A DNA stretch of 10,631 nt, taken from the NCBI GenBank assembly GCA_040384765.1, contig JAZKIQ010000007.1, positions 1 to 10,631 of the forward strand. Direction: 5' to 3'. This DNA is from Patescibacteria group bacterium (GTDB taxonomy: Bacteria > Patescibacteriota > Minisyncoccia > Phycocordibacterales > JBBUBG01). Under the pieces are notes generated by a model, which was not told the DNA's origin, searched no databases, and saw only the letters and a list, made by a program, of their open reading frames with translations. Positions within the stretch are counted from its first letter, which is position 1, and each line of letters opens with the position of its first letter. Shown here piece by piece: positions 200-3,829 of the stretch. The position numbers and the translations under genes are program-made.

Positions 200-415
200 A
201 AAAATCGGTGTACGTCCTTCGGGGCGCACTCCTGATCGTGTCGATGTTCTGGGTTCCTTAAGGATTCGGAACGGATAATGATTGTGTATCTCGAAACACC
301 AATCGGGCAGCCAGGGAAGACTGGTTCGGTCGGTCCGCAAGGATTTAGGCTGAGGGGCAGAACAAAAGAATAAGTATTTGTTTCTCGAGATCATTGTGCT
401 TTCAGTTTTCAAATA

Positions 416-449
416 ATGCAAAAAAGCGCCGTAAGGCGCTTTTTTGTAT
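416..449. terminator. Bidirectional intrinsic terminator between the 16S transcript and the convergent CDS
   Basis: AAAAAAGCGCC-GTAA-GGCGCTTTTTT: a GC stem with an A-tract on one side and a T-tract on the other. Confidence 0.9.
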
Positions 450-469
450 TTCTAGTCCCTGAGTCGAGT

Positions 470-613
470 CTACGCTGCTTTGCTCAGAGCCAGTCACAGC
501 TCGCTTTCTTCTGAAAGCGGTCGCGACCCCGCCTCCTCGCCTTCGCTCGTCCGGCCCGTGGCTCTGGTAACTGCTGCGCTAGCTCGCAGTTACGCAGCCT
601 TGGTCAGAGCCAC
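470..613 (-). repeat. Structured repeat element A: 65-bp scaffold (493-557) with arms derived from the host gene
   Basis: The scaffold aligns without gaps to 1435-1499 (43/65 identical by manual count). It is flanked by an imperfect direct repeat at 471-492/591-612 and carries an inverted arm GTGGCTCTG at 558-566. Confidence 0.75.
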
Positions 614-1060
614 GCCACCCACTGTAAAGGCCAAGGCTGAGAGTGCGAGTGCAAGGATGATCTCTCTTGCATCACCTCCAACTCCAGTGTTAGGCAGGCC
701 AGGTGTTGCTGTTGTATTTTCAGCATTCACGCCCTGGTTGAGGCCGGTCGAGTTTGCACTAGTATTCGCCGCCGCTCCTGCTGTTGTGTAGTAGTAGAGG
801 TATGAGTTGTCGTTTGGATCTGTATTCTGTCCGTTCACATTCAGGCTTGTGTTCGCCGCCGCTCCGTTTGTGTCGGCTGGATCGGCACTCGACTGTGATG
901 AGCCTGTCTGCCCGTTGTAATAATAGTAGTACGTTCCTTCTGTGTAATCAGGCGTGCCTGCGCCTCCTGTTGTGGCGGTCTGTGCAAATGCCGCTCCCGC
1001 TGCAAGCGCGAACCCAGCTGTAAATGCTCCGGCTCCTGCGATTATTTTTGAAAATGTCAT
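590..1060 (-). CDS. Secreted low-complexity surface protein with a C-terminal LPNTG (sortase-like) motif and TM helix
   Basis: Signal peptide MTFSKIIAGAGAFTAGFALAAGAAFA|QT, a T/N/G/A-rich body with two Tyr runs, and PGLPNTG followed by a hydrophobic helix. ATG 1060 is preferred over the ORF-track start at 1081. Confidence 0.8.
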   Translation of the reverse strand: MTFSKIIAGAGAFTAGFALAAGAAFAQTATTGGAGTPDYTEGTYYYYYNGQTGSSQSSADPADTNGAAANTSLNVNGQNTDPNDNSYLYYYTTAGAAANTSANSTGLNQGVNAENTTATPGLPNTGVGGDAREIILALALSALAFTVGGVALTKAA

Positions 1061-1129
1061 AATTAATGGACTACATAACAACGATATCTTTTGACCTTTG
1101 CTTCGAGGACGCGCTCAGCTGTGTTTCAT

Positions 1130-1164
1130 TACAAAAAGAGCACCTAAAGGGTGCTCTTTTTGTA
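1130..1164. terminator. Intrinsic terminator downstream of the tRNA locus (minus-strand transcript)
   Basis: 15-bp inverted repeat TACAAAAAGAGCACC-N5-GGTGCTCTTTTTGTA. Confidence 0.85.
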
Positions 1165-1170
1165 GATACA

Positions 1171-1211
1171 TTGGTGCGCGCGCCAAGATTCGAACTTGGG
1201 ACCTATCGAGT
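1171..1211 (-). repeat. Perfect 41-bp duplicate of the tRNA-Ile 3' half (A37 through CCA)
   Basis: Identical to 1279-1319. Confidence 0.95.
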
Positions 1212-1251
1212 GAGGAGCGAAGGCTTGGAGCTCCGCAAGACCTTTTGCGAG

Positions 1252-1388
1252 CTTTTAAAACTACTTTAATTGCCGAGCTTGGTGCGCGCGCCAAGATTCG
1301 AACTTGGGACCTATCGAGTATCAGTCGATTGCTCTACCAACTGAGCTACGCGCGCACTAAGCGCATTAATTTAAAGTAGTTTTAAAAG
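1252..1388. repeat. 18-bp perfect inverted repeat bracketing tRNA-Ile
   Basis: CTTTTAAAACTACTTTAA (1252-1269) pairs with TTAAAGTAGTTTTAAAAG (1371-1388). The stem extends outward via 1240-1247/1392-1399 and 1227-1232/1404-1409. Confidence 0.9.
1280..1355 (-). tRNA. tRNA-Ile(GAT), 76 nt, CCA encoded
   Basis: Cloverleaf: GCGCGCG TA GCTC AGTTGGTA GAGC A ATCGA CT-GAT-AC TCGAT AGGTC CCAAG TTCGAAT CTTGG CGCGCGC A CCA. Confidence 0.95.
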
Positions 1389-1417
1389 ATCCAAAAGGTG
1401 TACAGCTCCTGTAGGGA

Positions 1418-1538
1418 GTCGGTAGAGAGCAACTGTCACAGGTTCTTTTCTGCTGAAAAGCCCTGCGACCCCGCCTCGCGCACTTTTGCGCTCCGGCCCT
1501 TGATTGCTTCAGGTCTTCGCAATCAAGCTACGCGCGCA
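1418..1538 (-). repeat. Structured repeat element B: 65-bp scaffold (1435-1499) plus a degenerate copy of the tRNA 5' half (1500-1537)
   Basis: Same scaffold as element A. The 13-bp AGCTACGCGCGCA at 1526-1538 equals 1344-1356. Confidence 0.75.
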
Positions 1539-1553
1539 TAAAATGTAAACCTT

Positions 1554-3599: not shown

Positions 3600-3621
3600 A
3601 CTATCCACCTACTACCCTCTC

Positions 3622-3829
3622 GAAAAATAAAAAGCAAAATAGTTTCAGAAACATCTGCAGCTGACCTTAAAAATAAGGGAGCATTCGGCCATCAAAAATA
3701 GGGGTCGTAGCCTGTAAATGGCGAGGGAACCGCGGCGCGGTTTCCTCGCGCATTTTTGAATGGCCGAGGCAACCATTATTTTGTAGTCGGCGAAGCTGTT
3801 TCTGAAACTATTTTGCTTTTTCATTTTTC
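3622..3829. repeat. ~200-bp fold-back (long imperfect palindrome) element, MITE/REP-like
   Basis: A perfect 25-bp IR at 3629-3653/3797-3821, inner arms at 3685-3699/3752-3767, and a central GC hairpin at 3721-3749. Confidence 0.85.

Follow-up and report, generated by a model that had tools for sequence, protein, structure and literature searches.

The window, by which we mean the whole 10,631-nt stretch of Patescibacteria DNA that was analysed, contains a surface-protein gene and a tRNA-Ile(GAU) gene. Each of them is accompanied by one copy of a small folded element, named copy A and copy B (Table 1). When positions 493-557 and 1435-1499 were aligned, no gap was needed, and the blocks GTCACAG, GCGACCCCGCCTC and TCCGGCCC fell at offsets 0, 30 and 57, as an earlier, sequence-only reading of this DNA had described. 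The hairpins that it had placed at 567-593 and 1500-1526 were also recovered, each with 8 bp and an 11-nt loop.

Copy A was said to carry direct and inverted copies of the surface-protein 3' end, and both were found. The direct repeat is 22 nt long (471-492 versus 591-612, 86% identity), and the inverted repeat joins 557-578 with 593-614. Repeat copy 2 differs from copy 1 at 4 positions, 3 of them silent. The antisense arm S' can pair with either the gene end (604-613) or the downstream copy (484-492). The minimum-energy fold uses the gene end; the alternative is the closing stem P1, in which S' and the downstream copy form 8 contiguous pairs. The 5' strand of the hairpin at 567-593 contains the stop codon of the surface-protein gene, whose reading frame (590-1081) matched no family in NCBIfam. 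Within this gene, the motif TCACCTCC at 670-677 was considered as a displaced 16S tail, pointing to an intron. This idea was rejected, as the motif lies in the Gly-Gly-Asp codons of the protein and the same altered 16S tail is present in a second genome, G001.

At the tRNA-Ile locus, GGTAGAGAGCAA was found at 1421-1432 and ttgctctacc at 1329-1338, where they had first been noticed. The flank of copy B does resemble a tRNA D-arm, but it was not simply copied from the neighbouring tRNA, as had been supposed, because a paralogue far from any tRNA (C10:53029) shares it. The stem sequence of the copy B hairpin recurs at three other copies in the same genome (C4:38771, C4:49375 and C10:53029). The remnant at 1212-1230 is read, from its complementarity, as a relic of an older inverted copy between tRNA-Ile and the second 3' end. 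The syntenic tRNA-Ile locus in G001 has a different set of copies.

Table 1. Features of the two element loci in the window
Feature	Position	Strand	Details
Bidirectional intrinsic terminator	415-450	.	After the downstream repeat of copy A; inverted repeat
Copy A, direct-repeat copy 2	470-492	-	Second gene end ALSKAA, stop TAG; 3' strand of P1
Copy A core	493-555	-	Covariance-model match 478-570 (-), 82.3 bits
Core architecture (copy A)	493-555	-	GCC-GGA-(hairpin 1 with tandem G.A)-GA-GGC, GGG, GUCGC-(hairpin 2)-GUGAC
Copy A antisense arm S' (CAGAGCCAC)	558-566	-	Inverted repeat
Copy A hairpin	567-593	-	8 bp, 11-nt GA...CA loop
Live gene end, direct-repeat copy 1 (S)	590-613	-	3' end of ORF 590-1081, VALTKAA, stop TAA
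Surface-protein gene	590-1081	-	LPNTG motif, hydrophobic tail; copy A at 3' end
Terminator after second tRNA-Ile 3' copy	1130-1164		Inverted repeat
Exact second copy of tRNA-Ile 3' part (anticodon loop to CCA), 41 nt	1171-1211	-	Direct repeat
Remnant of hairpin-1 region, opposite orientation, 19 nt	1212-1230	+	84% complementary to 533-551
26-nt inverted repeat bracketing tRNA-Ile	1244-1269 / 1371-1396	.
tRNA-Ile(GAU)	1280-1355	-	80 nt downstream of copy B, same strand
Copy B core	1435-1497	-	Covariance-model match 1421-1512 (-), 78.7 bits
Copy B hairpin	1499-1527	-	9 bp, 11-nt loop; inverted repeat
Exact 13-nt copy of tRNA-Ile 5' end	1526-1538	-	Direct repeat

Copies in the source genome and its relatives

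The genome from which the window comes (G000, 822 kb) was searched for the block pattern, as the sequence-only reading had suggested, and further copies were found. Our own scans and a covariance model gave 24 copies in all (57-93 bits), of which 493-555 and 1435-1497 in the window are two. The exact three-block pattern had 2 matches in the genome and the pattern with up to 2 mismatches had 13, while the reversed controls gave 0 in both cases, so the blocks common to copies A and B far exceed chance. The core is a three-way junction of 61-96 nt, and the "fixed 65-nt scaffold" first proposed is one length class within this range.

In covariance-model searches, 126 of 151 genomes of the order carried the family, as did 8 of the 151 in a phylum-wide sample, and its fold is conserved across the order and beyond. 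The idea of a dispersed family with a constant structured core was supported. Viral contigs gave 2 exact-pattern matches; one of them, L158, is without the hairpins and looks like chance.

The G000 copies are diverged mosaics with a mean column identity of 58%, and the covariance-model scan of this genome showed no trailing off into decayed copies from 57 down to 40 bits. Together, these two observations fit selection on every copy. One variant of hairpin 2, that of copy B, was present at 5 loci of G000, and none of the 150 other genomes of the order had it, which suggests multiplication within the lineage. Partial and tandem copies were also present (L054, L056, L047 and L049).

Two sister families, with at least 16 copies together, were seen at hairpin tips in G000. 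Contigs C8, C11 and C12 had been considered as rRNA insertions of these sister families and were rejected after comparison with Rfam.

Fold and covariation of the core

Over the 24 G000 copies, 86.8% of the cells in paired columns were paired, compared with 38-43% when the partners were slid. Double-sided changes were seen in 25 of 30 pairs, and 0 of 500 shuffles reached the observed values. The covarying stem noticed between copies A and B is matched by strong covariation in the family. Across 29 genomes, in an alignment that had been fitted to the covariance model, 96.5% of the cells were paired and 24 of 30 pairs had double changes. In P1, all 8 of 8 pairs change on both sides, and the stem differs between copies.

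The minus strand had been suggested as the RNA strand from a single G-U pair, and this was upheld. A G.U was present in the GUCGC/GUGAC helix of all 24 copies, and on the folding strand G.U outnumbered A.C both within the genome (55 versus 23) and across genomes (74 versus 10). The strand call rests on these counts because folding energies discriminate poorly (z was -2.0 and -3.7 on the minus strand and -2.7 twice on the plus strand). The junction nucleotides are invariant, and the G.U adjoins the P3/P1 joint. A tRNA-like cloverleaf was rejected from the sequence, in which hairpin 2 is a 4-nt loop on a 6-7-bp stem and a T-arm is absent.

Duplication of gene ends around the element

Along a gene, the 3' end (S) is typically followed by x, which is a hairpin or terminator, and then by an antisense copy of the end (S'), a 3-nt joint, the core and a second S. 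S' can pair with the first S to form a long hairpin, or with the second S to form P1, which closes the junction. The arms do match local DNA, as had been noticed in the window: one repeats the 3' end of the adjacent gene directly and the other in inverted form. Targets are the 3' ends of tRNA, tmRNA, rplL and uvrB genes and, in the window, the surface-protein gene and the tRNA-Ile locus. The insert is about 130-170 nt long and has no ORF.

In G000, 10 of the 24 copies, a count that includes a hand correction of C4:49034, lie within 200 nt downstream of a co-oriented tRNA, where about 0.13 would be expected by chance. In other Patescibacteria genomes, 61 of 120 loci follow a co-oriented tRNA. 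The direct repeat varies from 9 to 41 nt, starts in the T-loop or anticodon loop and ends at the tRNA end. An exact repeat of at least 12 nt comes right after the core at 27 of 120 loci; where such a locus is linked to a tRNA, the first copy begins 18-21 nt before the tRNA end, in the T-loop, in 21 of 22 cases. The second S at tRNAs usually runs from the T-loop to the last tRNA base. No exact repeat of at least 8 nt was found at 90 of 120 loci, which means that most insertions are old or that insertion does not depend on the repeat.

Identity of the second gene-end copy extends past the stretch that pairs and takes in loop and acceptor-end bases without a partner in P1. Four gene-end pairs were compared (copy A in the window, rplL in G000, L065 and L068), and 9 of 10 base differences were silent or stop-to-stop. 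Judged by these differences, the second copy after protein genes looks like an old gene end; the bias to silent changes could partly be due to constraint on the live gene end alone. At tRNA loci, a terminator with a U-tract lies between the tRNA and the element. When copies A and B were tested as intrinsic terminators, no U-run was found after P1 of either, and the true terminators are those at 415-450 and 1130-1164.

Occupancy and orientation at target genes

A comparison of filled and empty sites, which had also been proposed, showed that relatives differ in whether a given site holds an element. The rplL gene is followed by an element in 2 of 29 sampled genomes, and the remaining loci have a plain terminator and no antisense arm. 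The tmRNA gene is followed by one in 7 of 29, and the tmRNA of G000 itself is without an element. At rplL, both species of a same-genus pair are filled, so this pair offers no empty allele to fix the insertion boundaries. Here the antisense arm follows silent changes of the gene, and S, S' and the second S co-vary. Three genomes have in common the arrangement tRNA-Lys, element, tRNA-Leu. Judged from rplL and from tRNA-Lys/tRNA-Leu, some copies are orthologous across species and have persisted.

Within a tRNA array (C9), some copies sit between the genes. Elements point either way relative to the target, and direct repeats accompany both orientations. An antisense copy lies at the 3' end of tRNA-Gly in G000 (C4:49375), and another lies upstream of tRNA-Ile in G001.

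Searches for enzymes and known RNA families

The window holds no gene for a cognate enzyme, in agreement with the sequence-only reading. In G000, which is 99.83% complete, there were 0 matches to reverse transcriptase (RVT_1, PF00078), Y1_Tnp HUH/RAYT (PF01797, with positive controls), IS110 DEDD (PF01548), the TnpB zinc ribbon (PF07282) and the Nop domain (PF01798, a Pfam model that divergent Tas proteins could escape). The recombinases of this genome are one Xer-type tyrosine recombinase and one serine-recombinase cluster, and neither is linked to the elements. The similarity of the Xer-type protein to integron integrase models was weak and below threshold. Self-BLAST of G000, searched for an autonomous copy, found no multi-copy repeat of IS size.

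Scanned against Rfam 15 with E up to 1, the window showed no match on the cores; the sole overlap was an sraL match at 417-518 that scored 21.8 bits, where the gathering score is 39. A further scan of 20 element loci against Rfam 15 also found no match. No description was found in Rfam 15 or in the literature searched. These elements are apparently an undescribed, large family of small folded non-coding elements of Patescibacteria.

Interpretation

With slightly better than even confidence, we consider these to be non-autonomous insertion or homing elements that enter inside the 3' end of a gene and bring a replacement end. They would settle within the last 9-41 nt of conserved genes. Entry would be a single crossover within S, in which the partner is a small DNA with the order S-x-S'-core, either circular or an incoming fragment; the observed order S-x-S'-core-S is what one such crossover would give. 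The gene would be rebuilt from the element-borne end, and the old end would be left as the second copy. Spread would be mainly by re-entry of the same conserved gene in other genomes, that is, homing through homology, with occasional multiplication within a genome. The fold of the sense strand, as RNA or single-stranded DNA, may be needed for propagation; alternatively, it may hold the antisense arm in a stem with the old gene end and so spare the gene product. This reading draws on the position of the copies beside tRNA genes, the duplicated gene ends, the filled and empty sites, the two orientations and the hairpin-2 variant confined to G000. Counting against it are the absence of matches to the five enzyme families searched in G000, the signs of selection on every copy, the orthologous copies that have persisted and the many loci that lack an exact repeat.

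It is possible, though it falls well short of likely, that the element is instead an RNA module that acts in cis at gene 3' ends and is inherited vertically, a switch for processing, stability or termination. S' would pair with the upstream tRNA or mRNA end or with the decoy copy, and formation of the junction would report the folding or translation of the upstream RNA to a protein or RNase. Such a module would suit the strand-specific fold with its invariant G.U, conserved across the order and beyond, and the tandem G.A modules, which suggest protein binding. Most copies are indeed co-oriented with tRNA, tmRNA or rplL, some of them inside one tRNA array, but copies antisense to neighbouring genes exist, and the U-tract terminator separates the tRNA from the element. 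The co-variation of S, S' and the second S at rplL in two species of one genus and the lack of decaying copies in the G000 model scan also point to a module, whereas occupancy of the same site is low and patchy at rplL and tmRNA, with none at the tmRNA of G000. The minimum-energy fold of copy A, in which S:S' is the hairpin and P1 the alternative, is also in keeping with a module; however, the identity of the second gene end extends past the bases that P1 pairs.

A bolder version of the insertion and homing reading is that the elements are a new class of self-propagating structured nucleic acid, which would enter conserved genes by means of a double-stranded replica of the target, a stem of the antisense arm and a gene-end copy capped by the conserved three-way junction; it would bring a spare gene end and act via a host factor or its own catalysis. 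This would explain dozens of copies per genome across Patescibacteria, and we regard it as unlikely.

The sequence-only reading had likened the element to guide-directed insertion, and we think it improbable that the element is a programmable guide RNA or DNA for a recombinase or nuclease acting in trans, as IS110 bridge RNA and TIGR-Tas guides are, and that its arms specify the insertion site. In favour of a guide, the element has a constant scaffold with two variable arms that match both strands of one DNA site, and the arms differ at every locus, with one core variant at five differently armed loci. According to PMC12045711, TIGR systems occur in parasitic bacteria and the two spacers of their guides target opposite strands. 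Against this, the arms are complementary to each other and adjoin the very site that they match, arrays are absent, and none of the five enzyme families searched has a match in G000. The flanking repeats are long and variable with no fixed stagger, and they resemble the identity blocks of tRNA-integrating elements rather than a guide.

We regard it as very improbable that the element is a small ribozyme, self-cleaving or self-splicing, that behaves like an intron in T-loops and gene ends and for which the duplicated end makes splicing needless. Several features would fit: the three-way junction is compact, its junction nucleotides do not vary and a G.U adjoins the P3/P1 joint; the insertion points in T-loops and anticodon loops are classic intron sites of tRNA and tmRNA; and S' acts like an internal guide pairing with the flanking "exon". 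Against it, scans with E up to 1 matched no Rfam ribozyme or intron family, group I and group II introns need a larger core, and antisense-oriented copies could not splice the target RNA.

Significance

Patescibacteria have some of the smallest free-standing bacterial genomes, and in G000 the 24 copies and at least 16 sister-family copies make up a sizeable share of the non-coding DNA. Most genomes of the order contain the family, and so do many other Patescibacteria lineages. If it is a mobile element, it would enter tRNA, tmRNA and protein genes without an integrase and without breaking them, and it would offer a tractable case of gene-end replacement and of spread via the homology of conserved genes. 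If it is an RNA module, it would be a 3'-end device that is both new and very widespread, in organisms about whose RNA processing little is known. Elements are also located at contig ends, so assemblies are probably broken by them. In addition, the elements create pseudo-tRNA fragments, and masking or modelling them is advisable in annotation.

Comparison with known systems

Group I introns occur in the anticodon loops of tRNAs and in the T-loop of a tmRNA. Like them, the element is a structured RNA that occupies these loops of tRNA and tmRNA genes and has an internal segment whose sequence is complementary to the flanking gene. Unlike them, it has a core of 61-96 nt, matches no Rfam intron, and leaves the gene intact without splicing because the gene end is duplicated. 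TnpB/IscB omega-RNA lies next to a TnpB gene or an IS end, and retrons and related elements have a reverse transcriptase; PF07282 and PF00078 each had 0 matches in G000.

In the bridge RNA of IS110, the guide loops are unpaired. The tigRNA of TIGR-Tas has tandem spacers (PMC12045711). The element shares with bridge RNA and tigRNA a constant scaffold and a pair of variable segments, one matching each strand of a DNA site, but the elements are dispersed and not arrayed, and their arms pair mutually beside the matching gene. The adjacent DEDD recombinase of IS110 has no counterpart (PF01548, 0 in G000), nor has the Nop-domain Tas protein (PF01798, 0 in G000), and the dispersed copies do not form tandem dual-spacer arrays.

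Integron attC sites, and attP(+) of CTX phage, which XerCD uses, are folded single-strand sites. As in these sites, structure is kept while sequence varies and one strand folds, and the Xer-type protein is the only tyrosine recombinase in G000. In contrast to attC, no integron integrase or cassette array was seen, the targets vary, and no core site like an R-box was recognised.

MITE-like and REP/BIME repeats (REP-RAYT, Correia and Rickettsia palindromic elements) are small, multi-copy, non-coding and strongly folded, and they are intergenic or 3'-flanking and often at terminators. The element resembles them in size, copy number, non-coding nature, strong fold and placement. Unlike these repeats, its closing stem differs per locus and copies the neighbouring gene end. 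Terminal inverted repeats common to all copies, with a short fixed target duplication, were not found, and G000 has no gene for a Y1 RAYT transposase.

As K. P. Williams is said to have described in 2002, islands and prophages integrate in tRNA and tmRNA genes through tyrosine integrases, at T-loop and anticodon-loop sublocations. Our element differs from such islands in its length of about 130-170 nt, in coding nothing and carrying no integrase (a lone Xer-type gene lies elsewhere in G000), and in having many targets per genome, which include the ends of protein genes. Two further differences are the antisense target copy that it carries and its conserved three-way-junction fold. The likeness lies in the repeat, which runs from the T-loop or anticodon loop to the gene 3' end: the element-borne copy would rebuild the gene, and the old end would be left at the far side. 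The direct repeat of the tRNA 3' part that marks tRNA-integrating elements starts in the T-loop at 21 of the 22 tRNA-linked loci with a repeat of at least 12 nt, and in the window it is the 41-nt repeat of tRNA-Ile.

Structure and folding strand

The fold was derived from an alignment of 24 copies of the element in the genome of the window (G000), read on the window's minus strand. This alignment supports a three-way junction. The closing stem P1 is different at every locus and is followed by a 3-nt joint. P2 consists of GCC/GGC around GGA...GA and hairpin 1, which often reads C-GA-GC-GAAG-GC-GA-G with tandem G.A inside. After a GG(G) joint, P3 (GUCGC/GUGAC) runs on into the A/U-rich hairpin 2. 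With this fold, 86.8% of the cells were paired, versus 38-43% with the partners slid; 25 of the 30 pairs showed two-sided changes, and none of 500 shuffles reached the observed covariation. In other genomes (39 copies, 29 genomes), 96.5% were paired and 24 of 30 pairs changed on both sides, but these figures lean towards the structure because the alignment was fitted to the model.

One P3 pair was G.U in all 24 copies and would be A.C on the opposite strand. In total, G.U and A.C numbered 55 and 23 within G000, and 74 and 10 across genomes. These wobble-pair counts indicate that the minus strand is the folding strand, which bears out the sequence-only reading. Folding energies alone did not separate the two strands. 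The minus-strand fold applies to RNA and single-stranded DNA alike.

Copy number and distribution

The two window copies align without gaps (493-557 with 1435-1499) and share the blocks GTCACAG, GCGACCCCGCCTC and TCCGGCCC at offsets 0, 30 and 57. In G000 (822,710 bases, 12 contigs, 99.83% complete), this exact pattern matched twice, both times within the window (reversed control 0), and 13 times with up to two mismatches (control 0). Looser scans and the covariance model gave the 24 copies (57-93 bits). A further 21 matches were weaker (14-40 bits, E up to 1), all below the 24 copies. Sixteen of the 20 inspected belonged to two sister families, which have the same three-way-junction design and hairpin modules with other junction sequences. 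Both are placed at the tips of locus-specific hairpins, some followed by a T-run. Several further repeat families of about 140-180 nt are also present in G000.

One hairpin-2 variant was present at five G000 loci and absent from 150 other genomes of the order, suggesting that modules are multiplied or converted inside one lineage. Between these five copies hairpin 1 and P3 vary, so the copies are mosaics.

Within the order, 126 of 151 genomes gave covariance-model matches to the family, per-genome counts being limited to the at most 27 candidates scored in each. A sample drawn from the whole phylum gave matches in 8 of 151 genomes, among them G000 and a second member of the order. Public genomes held at least 120 stretches with the exact pattern, a handful of such matches being expected by chance. 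Their labels were Saccharibacteria, Paceibacterota, Kaiserbacteria, Nomurabacteria, WWE3, Berkelbacteria and others, with three Elusimicrobia contigs and one Microbacterium contig among them. The Elusimicrobia-labelled loci (L181, L188, L225) carry the pattern at canonical spacing; at L188 a tRNA-Arg precedes the element and a 28-nt repeat is present. These matches could be due to transfer between phyla or to mis-binned contigs. Many copies sit close to contig ends, no more than a few hundred bases away (G000:C5:244, C9:14710; G015:C11:41, G143:C66:7, G100:C3:108, G093:C6:141 and others), and the assemblies were probably broken by the repeats. No Rfam family matched in scans of the window and of the element loci, and full-text searches of openly accessible articles, with passages of PMC12045711 among the text read, turned up no description of the element.

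Positions at gene ends

Ten of the 24 G000 copies (C4:49034, behind tRNA-Arg, included) lie within 200 nt downstream of a co-oriented tRNA gene, where about 0.13 would be expected by chance; an eleventh comes after a tRNA cut by a contig end. One other copy lies past the rplL stop codon, and further ones occupy the uvrB-uvrA interval and the space separating a murA-like gene from ddl, the gene names being taken from ORF termini. In other genomes of the order (29 loci), 28 of 39 matches had a same-strand tRNA within 400 nt upstream. The remaining 11 included five after rplL and four after an apparent tmRNA 3' end, one of which was confirmed by tmRNA search. In named Patescibacteria assemblies, a co-oriented tRNA ended within 150 nt upstream at 61 of 120 loci.

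The same sites are patchily occupied. In other genomes of the order, the element directly followed the rplL stop codon at 2 of 29 loci, with two further weak matches (23.5 and 17.7 bits); the rest showed no antisense arm by eye and had ordinary sequence past the stop, mostly a plain terminator hairpin. Two more filled rplL sites (G014, G032) came from the top matches. One or two copies lay downstream of tmRNA at 7 of 29 loci, and the tmRNA of G000 is without an element. In one genus rplL is filled in both species; the two cores have drifted apart, and each antisense arm tracks the silent changes in the rplL of its own species, which argues that copies can persist through speciation.

Duplication of the gene end

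Along the gene, a typical locus reads: gene 3' end (S), loop or terminator hairpin (x), antisense copy of S (S'), 3-nt joint, core, second S. This order was seen both sense and antisense to the target gene. P1 is formed by S' and the second S, with eight contiguous pairs in copy A; the alternative pairing of S' with the first S is the minimum-energy fold of copy A. At tRNA and tmRNA loci the second S starts immediately past GUGAC, and the repeat, where preserved, covers the tRNA from its T-loop to its final base. Exact repeats of at least 12 nt were found at 27 of 120 loci. Twenty-two of these were tRNA-linked, and in 21 of the 22 the first repeat copy begins 18-21 nt before the tRNA end. No exact repeat of 8 nt or more was present at 90 of 120 loci, a count in which the simple boundary rule may miss some.

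At protein genes the second S retains the reading frame and stop codon; at uvrB it provides another possible end in frame. At copy A, the live end is VALTKAA with TAA and the second copy ALSKAA with TAG, and three of the four differences are silent or stop-to-stop. Both differences are silent at G000 rplL, and the same holds at loci L065 and L068, giving 9 of 10 silent or stop-to-stop over the four pairs. Such differences would be expected if the element had entered within the gene end bearing a foreign allele of it. Constraint on the live end only could explain part of the silent bias.

The window loci

Copy A sits after the ORF of a putative LPNTG-motif surface protein. Its signal-like N-terminus, its Tyr-rich repeats and the combination of LPNTG with a hydrophobic tail make it look like a sortase-type protein of the cell surface; it had no match among NCBIfam families. 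The 16S rRNA tail (186-199) reads GGAAUUUUUCAAUG in place of the bacterial consensus GGAUCACCUCCUUU, so that the CCUCC anti-Shine-Dalgarno core is absent; the tail in the relative G001 is similar.

Copy B lies upstream of tRNA-Ile on the same strand, beside a 13-nt copy of the tRNA 5' end. In G001, of the same family, the syntenic order is 16S, antisense copy, tRNA-Ile on the 16S strand, terminator and sense copy (L152, G001:C54), and the 11-nt-loop hairpin of the antisense copy overlaps the tRNA-Ile 5' end. Unlike in G001, the G000 block is inverted relative to 16S. It contains nested exact repeats of both tRNA ends, and tRNA-Ile is bracketed by a 26-nt inverted repeat. We read this locus as struck more than once and afterwards rearranged. 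In the sequence-only reading, the copy B flank was tRNA D-arm-like sequence that matched local host DNA. Instead, its 'D-arm-like' 3' flank (GGTAGAGAGCAA) is similar to that of the paralogue C10:53029, and the hairpin stem CTTGATTGC/GCAATCAAG was found at four copies, suggesting that these parts move with the element and were not copied from the local tRNA.

Features of the window and of other G000 contigs (C1-C12); positions without a contig are in the window
Feature	Position	Strand	Remark
16S rRNA gene 3' end	1-199	plus	window begins inside it
Copy A core	493-555	minus	
Direct repeat flanking copy A	471-492, 591-612		22 nt, 86% identity
Inverted repeat at copy A	557-578, 593-614		
Hairpins next to copies A and B	567-593, 1499-1527		follow on plus strand; 8-9 bp, 11-nt loop
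Surface-protein ORF	590-1081	minus	163 aa
Inverted tRNA block	1130-1540		
tRNA-Ile second 3' part	1171-1211, repeating 1279-1319		41 nt, exact, anticodon loop to CCA
Hairpin-1 remnant	1212-1230	opposite orientation	19 nt, between tRNA-Ile and its 41-nt second 3' end
tRNA-Ile(GAU)	1280-1355	minus	
Copy B core	1435-1497	minus	
Long palindrome	3620-3815		inner ~150 nt another repeat family, 79% identity to C1:75874-76026
Sister family, 12 matches	C3:7889-7972, C12:6742-6825, C4:89418-89505, C11:5197-5280 and 8 more		
Sister family, 4 matches	C4:17565-17647, C5:4744-4826, C8:556-638, C5:15543-15625		
560-nt repeat	C4:10060-10619, 12458-13017		100% identity, same contig
tmRNA gene	C6:10733-11127		119.6 bits by Rfam model; missed by ARAGORN
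Resolvase-domain (serine recombinase) cluster	C1:90958-92473		3 matches, one in a 572-aa frame

Origin of the element

We lean slightly towards an element that spreads by insertion or homing. In favour of this reading are the patchy filling of a given site among relatives, copies of old gene ends with mostly silent differences, antisense-oriented copies, tandem and partial copies, and lineage-specific multiplication. The S-x-S'-core-S order would result if the chromosome and a small DNA with the arrangement S-x-S'-core crossed over once within S.

A function in place of mobility, of the kind of an RNA switch, is a rather unlikely account that has several observations on its side: every copy is conserved and covarying, decaying copies are absent, orthologous copies persist, and the alternative pairing of S' with either S has the logic of such a switch. 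The patchy occupancy and the antisense-oriented copies favour insertion. That the element is a programmable guide for an enzyme is improbable. No match to RVT_1, Y1_Tnp, IS110 DEDD, TnpB zinc ribbon or Nop was found in G000, with controls positive in each case; none of the HUH/RAYT, IS110 or reverse transcriptase genes proposed as partners in the sequence-only reading was thus matched. G000 has a single Xer-type tyrosine recombinase in addition to the serine-recombinase cluster, and no IS-sized multi-copy repeat. A small ribozyme or intron is very improbable.

The S-x-S'-core-S order, with its long stretches of identity beginning inside tRNA loops, is the mark of a tRNA-integrating element reduced to about 150 nt and deprived of its integrase.
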